From positions 1-11,623 of the forward strand of contig JAVCBY010000046.1 of NCBI GenBank assembly GCA_037917625.1: a stretch of DNA of 11,623 nt, written 5' to 3'. Positions within the stretch are counted from its first letter, which is position 1; every line of letters starts with the position of its first letter. Below the pieces are notes generated by a model, which was given only the letters and a program-made list of their open reading frames with translations, had not been told where the DNA came from and did no database searches. A program made the position numbers and the translations under genes. Below are positions 1,257-11,448 of this stretch, piece by piece. Source of the stretch: Thermoproteota archaeon (GTDB taxonomy: Archaea; Korarchaeota; Korarchaeia; Korarchaeales; Korarchaeaceae).

Positions 1257-1613
1257 ATGGGCTTCGTTAGGGTTAGGGCTAGGGTCTGGAATATTGAGAA
1301 CCCAAAGTTGTCGAGAGAGTTAGAGTTGTTAGCTGACACGGGGGCTATTTACACAGTCTTACCTTCATCACTACTAGAGGAGCTCAGCATAAGAGCAATA
1401 GGTAGAAGAAGGTTTAAACTTGCAAACAATGAAGCGATTGAGAGGGACATAGGTTTAATAGGTATTGAAGTTGAGGACAGGTTTACGCACACTATAGTGG
1501 TGTTCGGCGAGGAGGATGTCTACCTGCTTGGCTTAACGACCTTAGAGGAGCTGGGATTGAAAGTAGATCCCGTGAAGGGAGTTCTAGTACCTATGGAGTT
1601 GCTCCTAATGTGA
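1257..1613 (+). CDS. clan AA (retroviral-like) aspartyl protease, archaeal single-domain type
   Basis: 118 aa with catalytic 'LLADTGAIYTVLP', flap 'RRRFKLAN' and C-terminal 'LLGLTTLEELGLKVDP'. Confidence 0.9.
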   Translation: MGFVRVRARVWNIENPKLSRELELLADTGAIYTVLPSSLLEELSIRAIGRRRFKLANNEAIERDIGLIGIEVEDRFTHTIVVFGEEDVYLLGLTTLEELGLKVDPVKGVLVPMELLLM

Positions 1614-1638
1614 ACAAAAAGCTTTGAAGCGTGCTTCA

Positions 1639-1728
1639 CTATCTTCTCACGTTTATTCTCCGCTTTCTTATATTCTTGGAATGCGCCAAATGATACGTCA
1701 GGCGGAACGCTTTGGTCGGGCGAGCCAT
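1639..1728 (-). CDS. putative 29-aa basic small ORF (MARPTKAFRLTYHLAHSKNIRKRRINVRR)
   Basis: AGGAGG at 1738-1733, 4 nt before ATG 1728; stop TAG at 1641-1639; below the ORF-track cutoff. Confidence 0.3.
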   Translation of the reverse strand: MARPTKAFRLTYHLAHSKNIRKRRINVRR

Positions 1729-1781
1729 GTATCCTCCTTTTTAGCAACAGGCATCTTGCGAGATCTCATCCTCTATTTTTT

Positions 1782-1805
1782 CTTTCAATCCTCTTTTCAT
1801 TGAGA
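1782..1805 (-). CRISPR. isolated CRISPR repeat copy
   Basis: ctttcaatcctcttttcattgaga is identical to 24 of 25 nt of the repeats at 2563 and 2639 (base 1806 is t instead of c). Confidence 0.9.
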
Positions 1806-1839
1806 TGCAGCACTGACAACTCGAGAGATTGAGTTTGTG

Positions 1840-1864
1840 AGTAAACTTTATTAGGGTTATCCTA
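1840..1864 (+). promoter_or_regulatory. vapBC promoter (BRE/TATA) with possible operator palindrome
   Basis: agtaaa-c-TTTATTA (1840-1853) about 27 nt upstream of GTG 1878; imperfect palindrome tagggttatccta at 1852-1864. Confidence 0.5.
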
Positions 1865-1877
1865 CCTGGAGTTTATC

Positions 1878-2105
1878 GTGGGGGATTACGTAGTCATTGC
1901 AGCGAAGATCCCGAGGAAGCTCAAGGATCTGATGGATGAGCTGGGGGTAAAGCCGGGTCCAGTTATCAGGAAAGCTCTGGAGGAGGAAGTCAGGAGAAGA
2001 ACTCTAGAAAAGCTGGAGGAAAGGGCGAGAAAGCTCCTTGAAAAACTGCCTGAAATCTCGGATGAGGAGATAGCTAGGCTGATCAGGGAGGATAGGGGGA
2101 GATGA
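1878..2105 (+). CDS. vapB: VapB-type antitoxin, ribbon-helix-helix DNA-binding
   Basis: 75 aa: 'YVVIAAKIPRKLKDLMDELGV..VIRKALEEEVRRR' RHH pattern and 'EEIARLIREDR' tail typical of archaeal VapB; directly upstream of a PIN gene. Confidence 0.85.
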   Translation: MGDYVVIAAKIPRKLKDLMDELGVKPGPVIRKALEEEVRRRTLEKLEERARKLLEKLPEISDEEIARLIREDRGR

Positions 2106-2498
2106 GATATATTTGATTCATCAGCTGTCGTGAACCTCGTGAAGAAGGGGAAGCTGTCAGCATTCATTGAGGGATGCACACTCGACTTAGCATTATATGA
2201 GTCCCTCAATGCGCTCTGGAAGGAGCACTTCCTCCTGAAAAAGCTGAGCGAGGATGTCTTTAGGGAGTACATCGACATAATCTCGGAACTCTTCAGGGCA
2301 ATAGAGGTCAAGAGCGTGATGGAACTCGAGGACAAAGTCTTGGAAAATGCTGTAAAGTACGGTATCACTGTATATGACTCATCTTACCTAACTTATGCGA
2401 TGGAGAATGGTCTTATGCTCGTCACGGACGATGAAAAGCTCTCTAGCAAAGCGAGGGATAAAGTAAATGTGATATCCACTTCCGAGATTCGATCGTGA
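2102..2498 (+). pseudogene. vapC: VapC PIN-domain toxin with 5' frameshift
   Basis: PIN motifs IFDSSAVVNL (2109-2138), LALYESLNALWK, ITVYDSSYL, LVTDD. The coupled ATG at 2102 (ATGA overlap with the vapB stop) reads MRYI-stop and is out of frame with the body; the tracked start at 2130 omits the first catalytic Asp. Confidence 0.8.
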
Positions 2499-2562
2499 AG
2501 GTTCCCGAATTCGGAGGTTTCGCGATAAGAGACGTTTCATTCCCTCTATCACTCTCTCTACC

Positions 2563-2663
2563 CTTTCAATCCTCTTTTCATTGAGACCCTCGTTATTCAG
2601 CTACAAACAGGCCCGCATTTGCGAGATTTCACCCCAAGCTTTCAATCCTCTTTTCATTGAGAC
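2563..2663 (-). CRISPR. CRISPR mini-array: two identical 25-bp repeats and one 51-bp spacer
   Basis: ctttcaatcctcttttcattgagac at 2563-2587 and 2639-2663. The minus strand reads GTCTCAATGAAAAGAGGATTGAAAG with the canonical ATTGAAAG handle. Spacer at 2588-2638. Confidence 0.9.
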
Positions 2664-2767
2664 GTTAAAGAGAGAATATGATGAAATAAGCACCAAAATA
2701 GGGATTTTAAGAGGATCTACTTCTACTAATTAATGTATGAAACTTACAAGGATTGGAATTTCTTCTA
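2664..2767 (-). promoter_or_regulatory. putative CRISPR leader
   Basis: AT-rich ~100-bp stretch between the last operon stop codon (2768) and the first repeat; TTAAAA on the minus strand at 2710-2705. Confidence 0.55.
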
Positions 2768-3028
2768 TTACTTGGCCTCACTCGAGCTGATTCCATTTTG
2801 TATTCTACTAATTATAAAGAACTCGGGTATATATATGTACATTTTTTCCACTATTTTATTTATTTCATTTGCAAAGCTATCCTCGTTTTCGGCAATTTGT
2901 TTCATCTTATTATGCAGTTCTGAGATATCCTCTGCTAGAGATCCCAGATATCCTTGAATCTCCTCCACACTATCCAGAAGATCATCTAGAACCTTAAGAG
3001 AATCGTGTTCCTCTAGATCAGTCCTCAA
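2768..3028 (-). CDS. acidic coiled-coil ORF, probably the frameshifted C-terminus of the 3037-4632 gene
   Basis: TTG start without an obvious RBS; its frame stays open 22 codons further upstream (NIFYSGEYIQDYAQHLENLVDT), overlapping the end of the upstream ORF. Confidence 0.6.
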   Translation of the reverse strand: MRTDLEEHDSLKVLDDLLDSVEEIQGYLGSLAEDISELHNKMKQIAENEDSFANEINKIVEKMYIYIPEFFIISRIQNGISSSEAK

Positions 3029-3036
3029 GGTATCTA

Positions 3037-4632
3037 CTAAATTCTCGAGATGTTGAGCATAATCTTGGATGTACTCTCCAGAATAGAAGATATTTTATTT
3101 ATTGAATAGCTCAATTTAACGGATATGCCATAATAGCATCTCAAGTAACGTATAAATTTTTCATTTAATATTTCTTCACTTATCATAATAGGAATAACGG
3201 GTAGAATTCCATGCGTTATAGAAAGACTATTCCTCAAATTTTTTAAATGATATTCTAAATTTCCAGATTTTATTTTATAAAATTTATTCTTTTCATCATT
3301 AAGACTCAATTCGAAGTAGTGGATCTTTTTTATTAATTCATTCAAAGTGTCCAGCCTTCCTGGCTTATGCAATTTGGGTAAGAACTCGTTGGATAAGAAC
3401 TCCCTCTTTTCTTTCTCCTTTTCTTTCTCATATTTATCCGAGGGGATCGCGAGGAAGTAGGGAAGCGTATTCATAATCCTATCTACTTGATCCATCATAT
3501 TGACGAAATTATAAAGATTCGTAAAGAAATATACCATATCTGCTCTCATTAGATAATGAAATATACTTACAATGAAGTGAAGGTAAGGAATTATAACACT
3601 ATTTGCATATATGAGACTCGCTATACCGGAGTTCCTCACAAGATGGGTGAAGAATTTTACATCAAAATCATCGCCTGCCTCTCCCCTGTCTGAGCTTTTA
3701 CTCACTCTCAATTCCCCTAAACTCTTGAATAAAACCTCCATTTTCGTTATCTTATCTACATATTTTCCATAAATCTCAATTATTGAGGAGAACACTTCTC
3801 TCAGATTCTTAATATTAGTATAGCTTGGCATTACGCTTTGGACGAGATCTAGATGCGGTAGTAGGAGTTTATTCACTATGAGCTCTATTGTATTCATTAT
3901 GGATTCTTCTATTTTATGGGTCGCTTGTTCACTTCTATACACACTTTGTATATAAATTGTTAACTGATTTAAGATTAATGAGTTTATTATATTATAAAAC
4001 CGATAAACAAGCTCCTTGGTGTCATTATTTTGAGGAAAGATCGATAATATATCTAAGGTTATATTTATTAGTGATTCTATTAGTGACTCTACATAATTCT
4101 CCCTATTTGAATGATCTGGAAGCTCTATTTTCTGTAATATCGATCCTCCTGTCTGTTCCTCTTTAATCGCGTGAAAATACTGGATATTTGATAAGATACT
4201 GTCTTCTGATAGGACGCCTTCTAATATTGTTTGAACTTCCTCTCTCATATCGATGGAGAGTTTATCATGTAGGAATATATGGAGAGCGGCTCTAATGAGA
4301 GGTCCCTTCAAGTCCCTCAGGGGTCCCTTCTCTAGATGCTTTACGAGATATTTGAACTCGCGGTCGATGATATCTATAAATCTAACTGAATTTTCATCTG
4401 AGATTGTAGGAAGAAATAGAATCCCGATGGATTTTATACCCTTTAACTCCGCACTACTCTTCACTTCCTCTAAGCTCTTCTCCTTAGGTATCCCTCCTTC
4501 TATCTCGTAAAACTTTCCATATATGAAGAAGAGTTTTTTATCATATATCGGATCCATGAACTTGAGTTTGGGTAGTTTTAAGTCCCCATCCTCCCAAAAC
4601 AGTGATGAGACCAGTAGTATATCCGGGATCAA
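3037..4632 (-). CDS. uncharacterised AT-rich, largely alpha-helical protein appended to the type III operon
   Basis: 531-aa ORF whose TTG start lies 1 nt after the upstream stop, preceded by AGGGGA; no motif recognised. Confidence 0.8.
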   Translation of the reverse strand: MIPDILLVSSLFWEDGDLKLPKLKFMDPIYDKKLFFIYGKFYEIEGGIPKEKSLEEVKSSAELKGIKSIGILFLPTISDENSVRFIDIIDREFKYLVKHLEKGPLRDLKGPLIRAALHIFLHDKLSIDMREEVQTILEGVLSEDSILSNIQYFHAIKEEQTGGSILQKIELPDHSNRENYVESLIESLINITLDILSIFPQNNDTKELVYRFYNIINSLILNQLTIYIQSVYRSEQATHKIEESIMNTIELIVNKLLLPHLDLVQSVMPSYTNIKNLREVFSSIIEIYGKYVDKITKMEVLFKSLGELRVSKSSDRGEAGDDFDVKFFTHLVRNSGIASLIYANSVIIPYLHFIVSIFHYLMRADMVYFFTNLYNFVNMMDQVDRIMNTLPYFLAIPSDKYEKEKEKEKREFLSNEFLPKLHKPGRLDTLNELIKKIHYFELSLNDEKNKFYKIKSGNLEYHLKNLRNSLSITHGILPVIPIMISEEILNEKFIRYLRCYYGISVKLSYSINKISSILESTSKIMLNISRI

Positions 4633-4633
4633 C

Positions 4634-5005
4634 TTATCCCCTTACCAAGTCAATCAGTTGATTTATTTCCCACTTTCCTAACTTCTTCAACTGAAAGTAC
4701 ACACTGCATAGAGATTTGAGATCCCTATCCATACTCATTAATATATCGAGGATCTTTGATGAGATTATCTCTGCATCAGGCAGAGAGAATTGAATTCTCT
4801 TACTCGAGAACTTCGATGCTATCTCGCTTATTATTCCCTTTATGAAAATATCTCTATCCTTAGATGGATCGTATCCTTTCCTCAATATGTACTCATACTT
4901 TCTCAGTAGCTTGAAGCTCAAGTCATATGCATCACGGTCCCCGCTTAACTGCTTCAAGGAATTGCTCATCCTTATGAGCTGGACGAGATCCTCGCATCTA
5001 ACCAT
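4634..5005 (-). CDS. small alpha-helical type III-associated protein (123 aa; possible second small subunit)
   Basis: GGAGGTG precedes ATG 5005 (MVRCEDLVQ...), which overlaps the upstream stop, making this a better start than 5050. Helical and basic, no RAMP glycine loop. Confidence 0.7.
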   Translation of the reverse strand: MVRCEDLVQLIRMSNSLKQLSGDRDAYDLSFKLLRKYEYILRKGYDPSKDRDIFIKGIISEIASKFSSKRIQFSLPDAEIISSKILDILMSMDRDLKSLCSVYFQLKKLGKWEINQLIDLVRG

Positions 5006-5789
5006 CGCCGAACACCTCCAAAAACCTATCCTTAAGCTCCTGAAAAGCATTATTTACATCTTTCATTATTTCTTCAGTAATTTCTCTCTCCCTTCCGAGG
5101 CTATCGAGAGAGAACACCTTCAAATCTGAGATCCTGATTTTCCCCAGGCCCTTCGGCTTTCCGAATCCTAGAAGCAGTATTTTAGGCTCCTGGGGATTGT
5201 ATCCCATCGCTAAGATAAGTTTCGCTGTTTCCATCTTGAGTGGATTCAGAACGGTGATATCCGTATGCAGAATTGCCCCTTTGGGAATGCATTCTAAGTA
5301 ATACTGCTTTGTCTCCTCTTTAAACTCAATATCACTCCTATATATCTTTATCTTTCCAAATTCCCTCCTCCTTGGCTGCCAACTCGGGCCTACGCTGAGT
5401 ATCTGAGGTTCAATCTGTCCCTCCGGGAATGAATCTGAGAAGAGAGCTCTCGACATATAGCCGGGGAATCCGAAGAGAATTGAAGTTGATGATATGCTTC
5501 CAGTGATCGCTAAATAATAGTGTGAGATCACCCCCTTCAAAGTGGAACCAGGTATTAAGAGCTTATCATCTCTTCTTGCGTTGAGGAATAGGGGAAGTCC
5601 CTCATAAAGCTCAATTTCTCCACTTCCAACATGCACTGGAGATTCCGTCCTGATGGATGCTCGTATCTTATGAGCCTCTCTTAAGCTAGAGTGATGTAGC
5701 TCACGAGTCTCTTTTAAGTAAGAGTATAGGACCTTATTCATAGTGTCTCTCTTCACACCATCCACTTTTATGAATTTGTAAGTGCTCAT
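4998..5789 (-). CDS. cas7: Cas7-group RAMP, Csm5-like distal subunit
   Basis: 'TESPVHVGSG', 'LLIPGSTLKG', G-loop 'LLGFGKPKGLG'; no Csm3-type Asp after GSG. ATG 5789 overlaps the upstream TGA (ATGA), making this a better start than 5840. Confidence 0.85.
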   Translation of the reverse strand: MSTYKFIKVDGVKRDTMNKVLYSYLKETRELHHSSLREAHKIRASIRTESPVHVGSGEIELYEGLPLFLNARRDDKLLIPGSTLKGVISHYYLAITGSISSTSILFGFPGYMSRALFSDSFPEGQIEPQILSVGPSWQPRRREFGKIKIYRSDIEFKEETKQYYLECIPKGAILHTDITVLNPLKMETAKLILAMGYNPQEPKILLLGFGKPKGLGKIRISDLKVFSLDSLGREREITEEIMKDVNNAFQELKDRFLEVFGDG

Positions 5790-6625
5790 TTGCTCAACCC
5801 CTCGATCAGAGAATTTAGACATCCCTCGACATCCTTCCATTTCAACTTAGCCCTCAGGAGAGGCGGTTCTGTCTCAGGTTCGCATTTCAAATTGCATTTT
5901 GAGATAGAATCTAGGATAGAGATCTTATCCGCTTTCCTCAGGTCTAACCTCACGTACTTCCCGTAACTTGGAAAGTTCATCGAGAAAGAGAGCTCTTTCC
6001 TCTCTGAAGGCCATGGGATGATTAGGGAGATATCTGATAAACTCATGGATACATACCCGTATCCCCTGCTCTTAGATCTTCCCAATCTAGCGATTCCAGC
6101 ATTTGCCTGCGTGATCACTGGGGAAAGAAGCGAGAGGAAAGATGGAGGGATGTTCCTGAAGGAGATCTCGAATGAAAAATTGGTCTCTTCCTTTATATAT
6201 TCTTGAGTGAAGGGTCCGTACTTCACAGCCATAGTCGATGGATCTATCTTGATGTGCTCTCTCGTTCCAATAGCATCACTCCTCTCCGTTTGAGCATCAC
6301 TGAAAAAAAGTCTAGAGCCATAGGCTTCCCTCCTCCTGGCAGTTCCAAAGAGATCCTCCAGAAGTCCCGCATATCCCTCTCTATTGAGTGAGGATAGAGT
6401 CCTCTCTATTCCGGATCTGAAGAACCCCTTGAGAGTTGATCCAGGTATCACAGGTCTCCCCCTAGAATCCCTGAGGAGGGGTAAGTCCGGGGAGAGAGGG
6501 TCTATGGGACTCTTACCGGCTCCGATCGTTAGAGGTGATTTCGTCGTTATCTCGCACTTCATACTCCCTGAGATCACGATGGCTTCGAACCCTCTAATTT
6601 CTTTAATCTCATGCATCTCATTCAC
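5786..6625 (-). CDS. csm3: Cas7-group RAMP, Csm3-like
   Basis: 'SPLTIGAG..SPDLPLLRD', 'IPGSTLKGFFRS', 'LFG', 'RLGRSKSRGYG'; the start may be ATG 6616. Confidence 0.88.
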   Translation of the reverse strand: MNEMHEIKEIRGFEAIVISGSMKCEITTKSPLTIGAGKSPIDPLSPDLPLLRDSRGRPVIPGSTLKGFFRSGIERTLSSLNREGYAGLLEDLFGTARRREAYGSRLFFSDAQTERSDAIGTREHIKIDPSTMAVKYGPFTQEYIKEETNFSFEISFRNIPPSFLSLLSPVITQANAGIARLGRSKSRGYGYVSMSLSDISLIIPWPSERKELSFSMNFPSYGKYVRLDLRKADKISILDSISKCNLKCEPETEPPLLRAKLKWKDVEGCLNSLIEGLSK

Positions 6626-7265
6626 CCCCCGAGCATACTCGCTAGATCTACTTCTCTCACCTTCCCCTCGAAAAGATCCTTTAAATCAGCTACCTTTATG
6701 CTGGTCAGCTTTATCTTAACCCTCCCATATCCCCTGCTCCTCCATCCCCCTATGAACTCCTCCAAGCCATTGTGTAGCATTTTCAGTAGTAATATGAATA
6801 AATTGTTCGCATCCGAGAACCGGGGGTCGCTGAGCTCATTGAATATTATAGTGAACTTGAATTTAGTTGGGTTATCCTCATACTCCTTTATCGCTTCCAC
6901 TTTCACAAGAGCTCCCCTCTCAGCGGCGTCCCTCTCCCTATTGATTGAGACATGTGTCCTGGAGAGTGTGTCTACCGTATAAACTGGTGAGGCTTCCGTG
7001 AACTTTATCAGGGAGGAGAGTGATAAATTCCTCCCAGAGTATCCAAAAAGTTTATCAATTATGCAAAGATCCTCTAAACTCTTCGCATCCCTCTTCTCTG
7101 AGATACTATCTACGCAAGGCTCTAATCCGACCCTTATCTTATCTACCTCGATGGAGGAGCTCCCGGAGATCTTATAGGCGAGGAGGAGGCGGGATAGATA
7201 GGATCTGAAGAACCCCTTGAGAGTTGATCCCGGTATCACAGGTCTCCCCCTAGAATCCCTGAGGA
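6413..7265. repeat. 65-bp direct repeat shared by the two csm3 paralogs (6413-6477 and 7201-7265)
   Basis: ggatctgaagaaccccttgagagttgatcc[a/c]ggtatcacaggtctccccctagaatccctgagga; 64/65 identical. Confidence 0.95.
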
Positions 7266-7389
7266 CCGGAAGATCTATCGGGGAGGTCGGATCCCTTCCG
7301 GCGCCGACTCTCAGGGGCTCAAGTAACTCTATTTCACAATCCGCCCATATCCTCCTCCTCAAGGTCAGAAGTCCTCCAACCCCGCTCAT
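6622..7389 (-). CDS. csm3: Cas7-group RAMP, Csm3/Csx7-like backbone RNase
   Basis: 'EPLRVGAG..PIDLPVLRD' (catalytic Asp position), 'IPGSTLKGFFRS', 'C...CIIDKLFG', 'RTHVSINR', 'IGGWRSRGYG'. Confidence 0.9.
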   Translation of the reverse strand: MSGVGGLLTLRRRIWADCEIELLEPLRVGAGRDPTSPIDLPVLRDSRGRPVIPGSTLKGFFRSYLSRLLLAYKISGSSSIEVDKIRVGLEPCVDSISEKRDAKSLEDLCIIDKLFGYSGRNLSLSSLIKFTEASPVYTVDTLSRTHVSINRERDAAERGALVKVEAIKEYEDNPTKFKFTIIFNELSDPRFSDANNLFILLLKMLHNGLEEFIGGWRSRGYGRVKIKLTSIKVADLKDLFEGKVREVDLASMLGG

Positions 7390-7393
7390 AAGA

Positions 7394-7792
7394 TCACCTC
7401 AAAAGATCACTAAGTTCCTTCCTGTAGGCAGTGAAGATGTAGATACATGCTGTCAAGGTATATTTCGCCAGTTTCAGCCTCTCTTTGGTGTCTTTAGAGC
7501 TCTCAATGATCTCTCTTATGAGATTTCTGACGAATTTATATAGATCATCTCCTTTAGATGCTCTTCTAGCTATGAAAATTATTCTGAGCCCGAAGAGATC
7601 CCAATTGTTCTTTTTCTCGCAATCGATCGCTGCATCCAACATATTCCTAAGATTCGTCATTGTGATACTTGATTCCTCTCTCCCTTCTTCCTCCTCCTCT
7701 GTGGGTATACGGACGCCTATAAAGAGCTTCTTCGCTATCTCAACAGCCTTCCTCTGGAGGTTTACCTCCTCTAGGGAACTCGAACTCATCAA
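7394..7792 (-). CDS. cas11: Cas11 small subunit (Csm2-like)
   Basis: ~131 aa helical, 'ITMTNLRNMLD' and 'FGLRIIFIARR'; located between cas5 and cas7; GGAGGTGA RBS. Confidence 0.75.
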   Translation of the reverse strand: MMSSSSLEEVNLQRKAVEIAKKLFIGVRIPTEEEEEGREESSITMTNLRNMLDAAIDCEKKNNWDLFGLRIIFIARRASKGDDLYKFVRNLIREIIESSKDTKERLKLAKYTLTACIYIFTAYRKELSDLLR

Positions 7793-8805
7793 ATATCACC
7801 TCCCGAGCTAAAATGAAGGGGATTATCAAAAAAGATCATATCAAGACCGTGAAACCTCCTCAAAACATCGGAGGGGGGAGTAAGCTCTATTTGAATGATC
7901 TTCTCCGGGTCAAGATCTCCTCTGGGATAGACGAGGACGCTTCCAGGCCCGATCATCCCTCTATAGATATAGAACTTGCCATCTAGCCATGCCTTGAAAT
8001 TTGAAATCCTCAACTTCTCATATATGGGACTTCCAAGCCCTAGGACTCTATCCCTTGAGGAAAATGTCACTACATCAACTGTTAGGAACTTATGATCGGG
8101 TCTCAATCTCCTCATCCTCTCATTCCTATACCCATCAAAGTCCATTGAACTCTCCAATTTGATCTCAGCGAGCCCGAATCCCTTCTTCTTGAAAGCCCCT
8201 ATCCTCACTTCAGTCCCCCCTTTAAGCTCCTCATATAGGGAGTCATCTAGGAAAGCGAGGGAGTGAAACTTTGATCCAGGCCTTATGACTTCCTGCGTGA
8301 AAAGCAGTCCATATCTCTCTCCATCTACCTCTATATAGAAATGAGTCCTACTATCGTAGCTCAATGCGACTTGTGTGAATACTTCCTTCCTCGGAGGTCT
8401 GAAGATCCCTGAGGGGCTTATGAAAACCTCCCCCACCTTTTTGTCCAGCTTCCCCATCTTATCGAGTATATGAGGCCCCTCCTCCATCGCACTAGCAAAA
8501 AGAAGGGCAACAGAGAGGTAATTGCCATCTTCCCTCTTCGCCAATGTGGAGAGCGGTAGAGGAGGTGGTCCGCAAAGCTCAAATGGCTTATCGCTGGGAA
8601 AAGCATGACTCATCCAAAGGTTCAGATCCCCTATGCTACCTCTCGAGCCCCTCTTACCGAAGAAAACTGATGCTATAGCCCCTGAGAGTGTTGATGACGG
8701 TATGTATGATGGGCTAAAATAATGAGCTCCCTTGCTGTATTTATCCCTTATCGCGAGGGGCTCCATGGCCTCTATGCTTAAAAGAGCGACTCTATCGAAT
8801 CCCAT
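7789..8805 (-). CDS. cas5: Cas5-group RAMP (Csm4 / Csx10 C-terminal half-like)
   Basis: 'EAMEPLAI', 'YIPSSTLSGAIA', 'SHAFP', 'LLFTQEVIRPG', internal G-loop 'RIGAFKKKGFG', later 'GPGSV'. Confidence 0.8.
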   Translation of the reverse strand: MGFDRVALLSIEAMEPLAIRDKYSKGAHYFSPSYIPSSTLSGAIASVFFGKRGSRGSIGDLNLWMSHAFPSDKPFELCGPPPLPLSTLAKREDGNYLSVALLFASAMEEGPHILDKMGKLDKKVGEVFISPSGIFRPPRKEVFTQVALSYDSRTHFYIEVDGERYGLLFTQEVIRPGSKFHSLAFLDDSLYEELKGGTEVRIGAFKKKGFGLAEIKLESSMDFDGYRNERMRRLRPDHKFLTVDVVTFSSRDRVLGLGSPIYEKLRISNFKAWLDGKFYIYRGMIGPGSVLVYPRGDLDPEKIIQIELTPPSDVLRRFHGLDMIFFDNPLHFSSGGDI

Positions 8806-9388
8806 CGAATCTCACCTCCTCAACATTCCCGTAGCCTAAACAGGTCCATCCTCCTATTCCCCAGCCTTTGAGGGCATTTAGAGATTTTTTCAGAAGTTCT
8901 ATCTCCTTCTCGTTTAGATCTTCACTCGATTCTATCAGAAAAGTTACTTTGAGCTCCGATGATATCACTTGGGAGAAGAGAAGAGCTCCCTTCTCCACTA
9001 CCCCGAGTTCCCTATCAATTTTAATCCTTGGTCTTGACTCGATGATATCATCCAAGTTTAAATCGCAACTCTCGATCTCAAAGCTGAGCTTCCCCTCCTT
9101 AGAGATAGGAGAAGCTATCTCTCTATCTCTCTCGAAGCACCTACCAGCCACGTCCGTGCCGAAGAGATCCTCATATGCTTGCCTGAGTTCAGGGTAGTTC
9201 TGCACCACTATGCACGCTACTTGTCTGAGCGCTCCTTTGAACTGAGCTGGAGATATAGGGCATGTCACTATTTTGTCCCCAATTTTCTTCTCGTAGATCA
9301 TTATCTCATAATCCTCCTTCCTTATCTCACTCGAGGGTTGAACTGACCTCATACCCCTCAGCTTGATCTCCAGCCTCAATCCCCTCAT
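8792..9388 (-). CDS. cas7: short Cas7-group RAMP (Csx10 N-terminal half-like)
   Basis: 'ISPAQFKGALR', 'EDLFG', 'RPRIKIDRELGVVEKGALLF', G-loop 'GIGGWTCLGYG'; ATGA overlap with the cas10 stop. Confidence 0.82.
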   Translation of the reverse strand: MRGLRLEIKLRGMRSVQPSSEIRKEDYEIMIYEKKIGDKIVTCPISPAQFKGALRQVACIVVQNYPELRQAYEDLFGTDVAGRCFERDREIASPISKEGKLSFEIESCDLNLDDIIESRPRIKIDRELGVVEKGALLFSQVISSELKVTFLIESSEDLNEKEIELLKKSLNALKGWGIGGWTCLGYGNVEEVRFDGIR

Positions 9389-11448
9389 ATCACAACCCCT
9401 ACCTCACAGAGTTTCCTCCTGAGATCCACACCACCGATCTCATTCCTCATCCTGTCCTCTAAGATATCCAGGAGGGAGGCAAGTGCATAAACTGACCTCC
9501 AGAGTTCATCGGATCCTCCTATAGTTAGCTCTTTGAATATTTCCCTGAGGTTCTCGTATATCTCCTCGTTCTCCTCCATACCCCTAGCTATATCGCTCAA
9601 CCACCTGAGCACAGTGAGATCGGGATGCAACTTTCCGGGGGAGAGTAGATCATCAAGAACTTCTCTGAGATCAGAGGATCTGACCGCATTATCCCCTCCT
9701 ATAGCGATCTTGAACGCTTTGAGGACCGGGGATTCTCCCCTCCCCTTCCATATCAAGGAATTCCATAGAGATGCTTTCACTTTAGTTTTATCGAAATAGA
9801 ATCTTTCAATCGATTTCCAAGATGCGCTCGACTTTGAATAGAGGAGGGAGGCCTGAACTGTGAATCCATTCCCTCCGATAGACTTCACTACATCCTTCGT
9901 ATACCTGAGCATGCGATGGGAGGTCTCATATAAGTATACGCCAGGTATCTTCGTCCTTCCCACGCTTATTCCCATGCTGATTCCCACTTTCCTATCCTTT
10001 GGGATTATCTCAAGCCCAATAGCGTTTGAAAGTATTCCCTCAACATGAGCGAGACCTTCTATGAATCCGATTATGTGTTCAGCCCTAAGAATGAGCACCA
10101 TATCATCCCCAGCCACGTAGAAGGGAGTTATCGGGAAGAAGAAGTCGTACTTCCTCGGTTCAGTTGTCCCTCTCATTTCTAACAATTTTTCCTCGATCTT
10201 CAAGGAGTTCTTTGCCCCCTCAATTAACCCCTCTTCCATCAGCGCGCTGAAGAGAATGGATAGGGAGAGGAAGTCCTTTATGCTCTTAGACTCGCCCTTA
10301 AGACTACCGAAGCCATCCCCATCCGCACTTACCATAGCGATTAGTGCATTTGAGGACTCAGAATAATCATAATCCTCCAGATCGGATATGAACCCGATTT
10401 TAAGTCCATGGAAGTACTTCCTCAATCTATCGAGTATAGTGAAGGATGAGGCTTCCCTAACGGCTTCCGATACTCTCTCATTCCACCCTTCAGTGTTTCC
10501 ATTCAGGATATTCATGAGGATATGCCCGTATATAGAGAGGACGAGGCAGCTCTGGCATATCTTACCTCCACCCCTCTCCACTAAGCTTTTCCTCAGTTCT
10601 TCCGCCTTCCCGTCTTTAGCGAAGGACCTCAGCAATTTATCGATGGACCGCTCATCTAAGCACCGATCGGTCCTGCAACTCCTACAGATATCACTTGGAT
10701 CCAGTTCCACTGAATCCTCTAAATGTTCTATAACTTTAGCGGAGGCTAGAGCTAGTCTATATGACGATCCAAAGTTATTTATCAGATCTCTAGCTCTAAG
10801 CTTCGGGGGGCTTCTACCGTTCCCCTTAAGAACAATGACATCCGCGAGAGGTATTCCCTTTAAGTGCTCAATTATCCCCTCCTCTAACTCCCTTGAGAAA
10901 TCCGAAGAGGAGATAAATACGAGCTCTCCAGCTTCCTTTGTCAATATGAATTCCTCTCCCAGCCTCTCAGCCACATATTTTGATGCATACCTCGGGATTA
11001 TATCAATTAGAAGACTAGCACCTCTCATCTCCTTGAAAGCACCATTCCTCCTTATTAGCTCCTTGATGGAACCTACCTCTAAAAGCTGTATCGTGACTTC
11101 CCAGTTACCCTCCTCTATGGAATCTAAGAAACTCTTGGCCTCTTTGTAGTAATCTGTATCCCCTATCTTCTCAGCTAATTTGCTGAATCCCTCTTTCTCA
11201 GCGACAGCCTTTAATGAGGAGAGCCTTGCCTCCCTCCAATGATCGCTCCCTGGATCTTTTGAGAGAGATAACGTTAGAAGAGGAGGATAAGTGCGTATCC
11301 TTAAGAGGCTATGGAATAACTCCTTTTCTATCCCCTCTATTAAGAATTTCTTGAGCTTTTTGTTTACTTCCTCGAAGAAGTTTAAGCCCGAATTATAAAT
11401 GGCTATGAGCTCCTCCTCCACTTGCTTCCTTGCATCTCTAATCATCAA
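9385..11448 (-). CDS. cas10: Cas10 large subunit of a type III system, lacking HD nuclease domain
   Basis: Palm1 'VGSIKELIRR..KEMRGASLLID', Zn finger CRSC...CQSC, Palm2 'VSADGDGFG' and 'FYVAGDDMVL', 'ISMGI'; start TTG 11448 or ATG 11445. Confidence 0.93.
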   Translation of the reverse strand: MMIRDARKQVEEELIAIYNSGLNFFEEVNKKLKKFLIEGIEKELFHSLLRIRTYPPLLTLSLSKDPGSDHWREARLSSLKAVAEKEGFSKLAEKIGDTDYYKEAKSFLDSIEEGNWEVTIQLLEVGSIKELIRRNGAFKEMRGASLLIDIIPRYASKYVAERLGEEFILTKEAGELVFISSSDFSRELEEGIIEHLKGIPLADVIVLKGNGRSPPKLRARDLINNFGSSYRLALASAKVIEHLEDSVELDPSDICRSCRTDRCLDERSIDKLLRSFAKDGKAEELRKSLVERGGGKICQSCLVLSIYGHILMNILNGNTEGWNERVSEAVREASSFTILDRLRKYFHGLKIGFISDLEDYDYSESSNALIAMVSADGDGFGSLKGESKSIKDFLSLSILFSALMEEGLIEGAKNSLKIEEKLLEMRGTTEPRKYDFFFPITPFYVAGDDMVLILRAEHIIGFIEGLAHVEGILSNAIGLEIIPKDRKVGISMGISVGRTKIPGVYLYETSHRMLRYTKDVVKSIGGNGFTVQASLLYSKSSASWKSIERFYFDKTKVKASLWNSLIWKGRGESPVLKAFKIAIGGDNAVRSSDLREVLDDLLSPGKLHPDLTVLRWLSDIARGMEENEEIYENLREIFKELTIGGSDELWRSVYALASLLDILEDRMRNEIGGVDLRRKLCEVGVVI

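Follow-up and report, generated by a model that had tools for sequence, protein, structure and literature searches.

The CRISPR locus analyzed here lies on an archaeal contig of 11,623 nucleotides (nt; C49, JAVCBY010000046.1), referred to as the window, which belongs to a 1.22-Mb genome bin of the Korarchaeaceae (116 contigs, 84% complete). Read on the minus strand, as are all labels used below, the locus comprises a type III-D-like cas operon, an AT-rich leader, a two-repeat mini-array (repeat R1, spacer S1, and repeat R2), an antisense vapBC toxin-antitoxin cassette, one more repeat, R3, and the sequence that follows R3, denoted T. The similarity between S1 and T is far beyond chance and extends over more of the two sequences than the short core that was noticed initially. 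The best explanation, to which we assign a probability of about one half, is that S1 is a diverged duplicate of a unit consisting of the terminal repeat and the first ~50 nt of the trailer of the array, produced via recombination in a split, decaying array. So understood, the locus is a case of ordinary CRISPR array dynamics with an uncommon product, namely, a spacer-like copy of the trailer.

Similarity of S1 to the sequence that follows R3

R1 (GTCTCAATGAAAAGAGGATTGAAAG; 2639–2663, minus strand, as are all elements of the array) and the identical R2 (2563–2587) enclose S1, a 51-nt spacer (2588–2638); R3 (1782–1806) starts with A where the other two have G. The preliminary description of this DNA, which was made from the window alone, placed S1 correctly at 2638–2588 and pointed out its resemblance to the segment after R3. 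The S1 string quoted there is found at 2634–2606; the quoted post-R3 string is present as well, at 1771–1746, so that its given start, 1772, was one base off. The S1-like part of T spans 1776–1733, with the core at 1771–1756. This core, ATCTCGCAA, which is not a low-complexity sequence, is identical between S1 and T in 14 of the 16 positions and is followed in both by ATGC and CCTGTT, exactly as described.

Comparison with shuffled sequences, which the same description had proposed as a check, places the resemblance above background. The local alignment score of 25 was matched by 4/5000 and 1/5000 mononucleotide shuffles and by 6/5000 dinucleotide shuffles, and the score of 34 for the end-to-end alignment of S1 with the 60 nt after R3 (36 of the 51 bases matched, with five gaps) by 0/5000 dinucleotide shuffles (z = 6.3). 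Among the 162,280 60-nt segments of the genome (both strands), eight reach a score of at least 34, of which five overlap S1, two overlap T, and one lies elsewhere (on contig C24); across the 1.22-Mb genome, no sequence apart from S1 itself matches S1 better than T does. With its five gaps, this match falls short of the near-perfect, full-length host match that marks a self-targeting spacer, and a blastn-short search produced none better. None of the 84 other spacers of the genome resembles T (maximum local score of 17).

The structure of the alignment fits a duplicated unit. R1 with S1 and R3 with T have the same orientation and are co-linear from the repeat onward, and S1 is aligned throughout, with indels. 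Three parts of S1 align to T in order (1, 94, and 44 of 5000 shuffles, respectively), S1 nt 14–51 taken alone are significantly similar to T (0/5000 shuffles), and 7 of the 9 bases directly before S1 nt 14 match T in register. Judging from these alignments, S1 nt 14–51 (2625–2588) are homologous to T, and the homology probably extends over S1 nt 5–51.

Several other candidate relatives were examined and rejected. The sequences downstream of the three repeats do not form one homologous set, given that the post-R2 sequence matches neither S1 (134/2000 shuffles) nor T (354/2000 shuffles). A repeat-like 25-mer on contig C13 is flanked by a sequence that matches the post-R2 sequence at 15 of 17 positions (3/2000 shuffles), but it lies inside the nuoH/nuoI coding sequence and is a chance match. 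The middle of S1 matches four sites on contig C1 at 16 of 17 nt; these matches do not extend and fall within DNA coding for the ATNRP motif of CDC48-type AAA ATPases.

T as a trailer and the collapse of the array

The nature of T and R3 becomes apparent from a related metagenome contig of 1890 nt (L052). At least 118 stretches of metagenome contigs match the core pattern; among the matches listed, only L052 contains the repeat, and the others are chance matches. L052 is 97.0% identical to the window over 1284 nt and 97.7% identical over 341 nt, the two stretches covering the interval between the end of the cas operon and a protease gene beyond T. It contains R1-S1-R2 as well, and its S1 carries a single substitution, at nt 5, within the core. 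After vapBC, L052 harbors a degenerate repeat (1426–1448), which starts with A and is two bases short, then a 39-nt spacer, a perfect repeat (1488–1512), a 37-nt spacer, and another perfect repeat (1550–1574), which is followed by the same sequence as T (153 nt; 1629–1781 in the window, minus strand). Because three repeats and two ordinary spacers precede T in L052, this alignment identifies T as the trailer after a terminal repeat, not as a spacer, and R3 as what is left, after collapse, of an array with three repeats and two spacers. The odd first base of R3, A, is the same as that of the first, degenerate repeat of L052. The "orphan repeat" of the preliminary description is, then, single in the window, as stated there, but not a true orphan, being the product of the collapse of an array that is intact in L052.

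Two hot-spring sequencing runs, X1 and X2, the contigs of which were aligned to the window, show further variation at both ends of the array. In X2, a 1116-nt contig spans a single repeat at the place of R3, with G as the first base; among the X1 contigs, both A and G are found in this position. The X2 contig that extends from vapC across R2 and reaches the following repeat carries a different spacer of ~39 nt at the S1 position, with thirteen bases omitted, one inserted, and at least six substituted compared with S1; this reconstruction is approximate and rests on 9 of the 17 substitutions of the contig. An apparent joint between 1779 and 2638 in X1 (one contig, depth of 4, 26 nt on the short side) was considered as a deletion and rejected; we read it as a repeat-ending contig that was placed on R1 instead of R3.

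Most features of the locus are those of a canonical CRISPR array. R1, R2, and R3 are near-identical direct repeats in the typical range of 24–37 nt and match, with 1 nt different, the repeats of the large arrays of the same genome, 60 of which are located on contig C40, beside cas1, and 26 on contig C97. An AT-rich leader and cas genes adjoin the array, and the spacers vary among strains, as demonstrated by the other spacer at the S1 position in X2 and the two extra spacers in L052. The exception is the length of S1. Among the 84 other spacers of the genome, 81 are 36–41 nt long, with the mode at 38–39 nt, and the remaining three measure 45, 48, and 55 nt. With its 51 nt, S1 is in keeping with an origin by some route other than normal acquisition, in which spacer length is measured as if by a ruler.

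Odd-length spacers are found also in the main array, on C40. There, the first 14 nt of spacer 32 (48 nt) are shared with its next older neighbor, spacer 33 (39 nt), and the last 21 nt of spacer 34 (55 nt) are common to spacer 33, which leaves spacers 32 and 34 with 34 nt of their own sequence each (C40, 1651–1842); the chimeric structure of these odd-length spacers suggests slipped integration or within-spacer recombination. All nine leader-proximal repeats of this array (C40, 3315–3845) begin with T in place of G, the pattern that would result from a first-repeat mutation copied at every acquisition; this confirms the polarity of the main array and its recent activity. A second two-repeat mini-array, which has the same repeat variant as that of the window and in which one repeat carries a G-to-A change, is located on contig C72 (65–154). 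Its 40-nt spacer is unlike its own trailer, and the array lies 168 nt upstream of an open reading frame (ORF) for a protein of 286 amino acids (aa); no recognized cas gene is found among the listed ORFs of this contig.

Origin and possible function of S1

Under the preferred explanation, a single CRISPR array downstream of the III-D-like operon would have been split by the vapBC cassette and entered decay, and a segment consisting of a repeat and the first ~50 nt of the trailer would have moved to the leader end by recombination or duplication. Two routes can be envisaged, each of which would yield exactly the arrangement leader-R1-S1-R2-vapBC-R3-T: either (a) tandem duplication of a block that begins at R2 and ends at trailer nt ~50, and then a deletion with the first R2 and the first terminal repeat as its endpoints, or (b) excision of a circle from a diverged homologous island, joining trailer nt ~50 to a repeat, and integration of this circle through the repeat. 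Subsequent repeat-to-repeat recombination would have deleted the two ordinary spacers downstream of vapBC, leaving R3. Thus modified, the suggestion of a diverged repeat-guide duplication made in the preliminary description is retained: S1 and its counterpart share their orientation, both directly follow a repeat, and the whole of S1 is aligned, but the supposed guide after the orphan repeat turns out to be a trailer. Both kinds of processes have precedents, as far as the cited texts go: repeat-mediated duplication, deletion, and collapse of arrays (PMC8047081), and entry of mobile DNA into repeats with loss or duplication of spacers (10.1101/2020.10.09.333658).

Several observations weigh against this explanation. 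S1 and T differ at ~15 of the 51 positions, including four internal indels, that is, by ~30%, despite identical repeats and a difference of only 3% between the window and L052. This discrepancy implies that a duplication in place would be much older than the divergence of the sampled strains, and evidence of so old an event was not found, or else that the donor was diverged. Route (b) would account for such divergence next to identical repeats and a strain difference of 3%, but no diverged T-like donor was found among the metagenome core matches listed or in the genome_contigs set, viral contigs, phages, or plasmids. Furthermore, all the statistical weight of the alignment resides in S1 nt 14–51, 38 nt, which is a modal spacer length; nt 1–13 alone are insignificant (1730/5000 shuffles for the window, 403/5000 for L052). 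The X2 spacer, in the approximate reconstruction, has the first 13 nt of S1 but is otherwise unrelated to it, and this, together with the insignificance of the same segment, is more in line with a chimera of 13 + 38 nt than with simple duplication. Finally, the main array of the same genome contains chimeric long spacers of this kind.

Such a chimera, made by the adaptation machinery, is the main rival explanation, and we consider it possible although doubtful. In this case, mis-staggered integration by Cas1-Cas2, with the second cut slipping into the neighbor, would have copied the repeat together with the 13-nt head of an older spacer, which was later lost through repeat recombination, and the last 38 nt would be a true spacer derived from foreign DNA that contained a diverged homolog of T, for example, a related CRISPR island of another strain or of a mobile element. 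Apart from the lengths and the distribution of significance within S1, this scenario is favored by the normal length (~39 nt) of the X2 spacer with its seemingly identical head, by the same pattern of sharing in main-array spacers 32–34, and by the presence of cas1 in the genome, on C40. It would require, however, three coincidences that duplication provides for free, namely, the same orientation of the two sequences, their nearly equal distances from the repeat (13 and 19 nt), and the 7 of 9 in-register matches upstream of the 38-nt part. Moreover, no donor was found for the 38-nt part either in the sets named above, and the X2 sequence on which the scenario draws is an approximate reconstruction only.

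Could S1 and T instead be two independent spacers against variants of one mobile element, with T the old last spacer and its terminal repeat decayed beyond recognition? Among the same-orientation spacer pairs of this genome, 3 of 3486 reach the same local score, and the offset of 5–6 nt between S1 and T would be natural for separate acquisitions. Nevertheless, this scenario is very unlikely: the homology reaches nt 49 of T and nt 51 of S1, past the usual 36–41 nt; a decayed terminal repeat was sought after T and at the 3′ end of S1, and neither sequence is significantly repeat-like (394/3000 shuffles, and 337/5000 and 618/5000 shuffles); and no protospacer was found in viral contigs, phages, or plasmids. 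Chance likeness of two purine-rich sequences is extremely improbable. The comparably significant match on C13 that proved spurious is a reminder that such likeness does occur, but the end-to-end alignment exceeds every shuffle, and T is the top non-self match genome-wide, found at one place named beforehand.

The preliminary description also offered two functional explanations, namely, that S1 and the post-R3 segment are conserved regulatory guides with a common target, or that the guide targets a plus-strand read-through RNA from the same locus. Neither is supported by the comparisons. None of the other 39 genomes of the class has the core beside a repeat, contrary to the conservation that such guides would be expected to show, and the repeat end joined to the core has one match in genome_contigs, in GC-rich coding DNA of a Lentisphaerales metagenome-assembled genome that lacks the repeat, apparently by chance. 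In the arrays of three relatives (112, 119, and 134 spacers), 0 of 365 spacers resemble their own trailer, with maximum scores of 20, 18, and 19, respectively, versus 34 here, and these trailers are unlike either T or S1. No protospacer of either S1 or the core emerged from the proposed searches of the host genome and of viruses: in the genome, the one additional core-like site, on contig C33, has one mismatch and does not extend; the core pattern has nine matches in viral_contigs, none of which goes beyond 18–20 nt; the 3′ part of S1 has none in this set; and S1 yields four phage records at E = 1 and one plasmid record at E = 3. Given the replacement of the spacer in X2, the substitution in the core in L052, and the null result for the spacers of the relatives, the resemblance of S1 and T shows no sign of selective constraint.

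Targeting of a read-through RNA meets with an additional difficulty. S1 and T have the same polarity, so that a CRISPR RNA (crRNA) containing S1 could pair with plus-strand RNA only. Type III complexes pair along the whole spacer without bulges. The longest pairing without gaps between S1 and T covers 16 nt and includes two mismatches, spacer bases 1–4 are unpaired, and the register relative to the repeat tag is off by 5–6 nt; such short and interrupted pairing would be insufficient for targeting by type III complexes. T, furthermore, lies outside the predicted vapBC mRNA, considering that a TATA-like box (CTTTATTAGG; 1846–1855, plus strand), the predicted vapBC promoter, is located 28 nt before the GTG start of vapB at 1878; this mRNA is probably leaderless and would exclude T, so that the T site could be present only in read-through RNA of the protease gene. 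S1 may well give rise to a transcript that is processed to a crRNA. Its likeness to T, however, appears to be a mark of descent rather than a guide-target or co-regulatory relationship. Whereas the homology, the nature of T as a trailer, the collapse of the array, and the polymorphism at the S1 position are shown by the alignments, the order and mechanism of the events and the absence of function are inferred.

A regulatory role nevertheless has to be weighed against known mini-arrays that generate crRNA-like guides, such as CreTA and CreR. Here, R1-S1-R2 would steer the III-D complex or Cascade to the partial site 97–132 nt upstream of vapB, or to the read-through RNA of the protease gene, tying expression of vapBC or a neighbor to the presence of the effector. 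The attraction of this proposal is that a two-repeat mini-array directly downstream of a cas effector operon partially matches a site near a toxin-antitoxin cargo pair, and type I and V-A mini-arrays with partial matches to cas or toxin-antitoxin promoters are reported in the cited parts of two studies (PMC10120712; 10.1101/2023.03.10.532045). Nonetheless, we consider it unlikely. The repeats are perfect, not degenerate; the match is gapped and short, and, for the DNA-binding Cascade, it is exactly the repeat-proximal bases that mismatch; the site lies across R3 from the predicted TATA box of vapBC, outside the predicted mRNA; S1 is replaced by another spacer in X2; the vapC gene of the window is 5′-truncated (see below); and type III mini-arrays lack targets or conservation in the part of a survey considered here (PMC10120712). 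A more elaborate version is a long shot: R1-S1-R2 would be a type III counterpart of CreTA/CreR, the crRNA-like product of which leads the III-D-like effector to the imperfect site in plus-strand RNA that extends from the protease gene across T and R3 in the direction of vapBC, such that the effector tunes the embedded toxin-antitoxin pair and the island becomes addictive, with a trailer-derived RNA carrying its own 5′ tag acting as a second, competing guide or a decoy. If true, this would be the first type III CRISPR-derived regulator guarding toxin-antitoxin cargo.

Comparison with described systems, to the extent that these are covered by the passages drawn upon, places the locus closer to rearranging arrays than to regulators. 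As in repeat-mediated array rearrangement (PMC8047081), where identical repeats recombine, two units of L052 are missing in the window and X2, with one repeat left, and a repeat-flanked unit occurs twice; unlike in that case, the unit consists of the terminal repeat and the trailer, not of a segment bounded by two repeats, which makes at least one non-repeat junction necessary, and the copies are deeply diverged. Mini-arrays lie beside 10–16% of type III loci and, having neither targets nor conservation in this account, were judged to be "degraded, non-functional CRISPR repeats" (PMC10120712). The present two-repeat array resembles these in that it flanks a III-D-like operon, is not conserved in close relatives, and has no detectable target, but differs from them in its perfect repeats and polymorphic spacer position, which suggest a still or recently active end of an array rather than a dead relic. 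With CreTA/CreR (PMC10120712; 10.1101/2023.03.10.532045), it shares the location of a mini-array in a cas locus, the partial self-match, and the proximity of a toxin-antitoxin pair, but not the degenerate repeats, the seed- (repeat-) proximal match over a promoter beside a protospacer-adjacent motif, the DNA-binding effectors, or the conservation of mini-array and spacer that characterize these systems in the cited texts.

The insertion of the cassette into the array also has partial parallels, again as covered by the cited texts. Integration of a Streptococcus pyogenes phage in CRISPR repeats was accompanied by spacer loss in 23 of 100 lysogens and by duplication in 2 of 100 (10.1101/2020.10.09.333658); there, as here, foreign DNA between two repeats splits the array, but the DNA inserted here is a vapBC cassette of 756 nt, beside which no integrase is apparent, and the host locus is archaeal and III-D-like. 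In crenarchaea, vapBC pairs are interspersed in cas cassettes, including those of type III-D (PMC4390879); the present pair likewise lies within a type III-D-type CRISPR-Cas locus, but between CRISPR repeats instead of between cas genes.

The locus is a caution that resemblance of a spacer to a self sequence near a cas operon need not signify regulation: population data from one related contig and two sequencing runs reveal a decaying, rearranging array. It also offers a natural, datable example that combines a spacer-like copy of a trailer, collapse of an array to a single repeat, and a toxin-antitoxin cassette between repeats. The odd-length chimeric spacers hint that inexact integration or intra-spacer recombination might be common in this lineage, which affects the reading of spacer lengths and array histories.

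Genomic setting of the array

The vapBC cassette occupies the 756-nt stretch between R2 and R3. The vapB antitoxin gene (1878–2105, plus strand) matches the VapB family NF050799 of NCBIfam with E = 2.6e-12 and 47 bits, under the cut-off of 60, and vapC (2130–2498, plus strand) encodes a PIN domain (Pfam PIN, E = 1.2e-3, under the cut-off; PDB 2fe1, E = 1.8e-11, and 1v8p, E = 1.7e-9). As is typical of VapBC pairs, a small antitoxin gene is followed by an overlapping PIN gene, the ATG of vapC overlapping the vapB stop in L052. A TA run at ~2106 is shorter by two bases (AT) in the window than in L052 and all aligned X1 and X2 contigs, so that the overlapping ATG of vapC is out of frame and the first in-frame start is the GTG at 2130. 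The gene is, hence, truncated at its 5′ end, the GTG falling after the segment MRYIFD, which probably contains the first acidic PIN residue; either the toxin gene is disabled or the assembly is in error at this point. DNA homologs of vapB (65–69% identity) were identified in five genomes of the same genus, in none of which the gene is flanked by repeats.

The type III-D-like cas effector operon (2768–11448, minus strand) was recognized through matches to Pfam RAMP and Cas10 palm2 families and to the NCBIfam families Csx7, Csx10, Cmr2, and Cmr4, mostly under the curated cut-offs. It encompasses, all on the minus strand, a Cas10-like gene (9385–11448), five RAMP genes (8792–9388, 7789–8805, 6622–7389, 5786–6625, and 4998–5840), an ORF of the size of a small subunit (132 aa; 7394–7792), and three ORFs of unknown family (4634–5050, 3037–4632, and 2768–3028). 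A 531-aa protein of this operon, encoded next to the leader, has no relative in 40 relatives, in genome_contigs, or in 42 other genomes of the phylum, and, for this reason, distant copies of the cas locus could not be compared. A 65-nt direct repeat, 98% identical, is present inside two adjacent RAMP genes (at 6413–6477 in 5786–6625 and at 7201–7265 in 6622–7389) and may result from gene conversion between paralogs. Between the operon and R1 lies the leader-like AT-rich region of 104 nt (2664–2767, minus strand), with a GC content of 28.8% compared with 43.8% for the window, which is conserved in L052.

On the opposite side, a gene for a retropepsin-like aspartic protease (1257–1613, plus strand; Pfam PF13975 and PF13650; TIGR03698, E = 9e-9) is convergent with the array and is its neighbor, outside the feature considered here. 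Contigs of both X1 and X2 depart from the window sequence at 1628, and the summed contig depth, 100–400 over 1274–1643, drops to 9–19 beyond. The protease-gene region (1220–1643) is represented in both runs by many variant contigs at 100–400x, and the abundant relatives differ from the window after 1628; no DNA match to this region was found in 15 genomes of the same genus, nor is there a second copy in the genome bin. The drop in depth and the departure of the contigs indicate that the trailer, the repeats, vapBC, the array, and the cas operon form a probable strain-specific island with an edge at ~1628/1629. Downstream of T, the small ORFs (1520–1747, minus strand, in the window; 1628–1720 in L052) are shifted in frame by one- and two-base indels; judging from the two sequences, there is probably no gene in this place despite a GGAGG-ATG arrangement at 1733–1726. 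A search of the whole window against Rfam yielded no family reaching the gathering score.

A lone repeat at a distance from an array was observed also in a relative from another genus (locus L153, on contig C27 of genome G024). In this case, ~500 nt follow the last repeat of the array before a lone perfect repeat appears (minus-strand locus positions 11699–12222); this stretch contains a 109-aa Cys-rich, zinc-ribbon-like ORF, which is another case of a small gene located between repeats at the end of an array.

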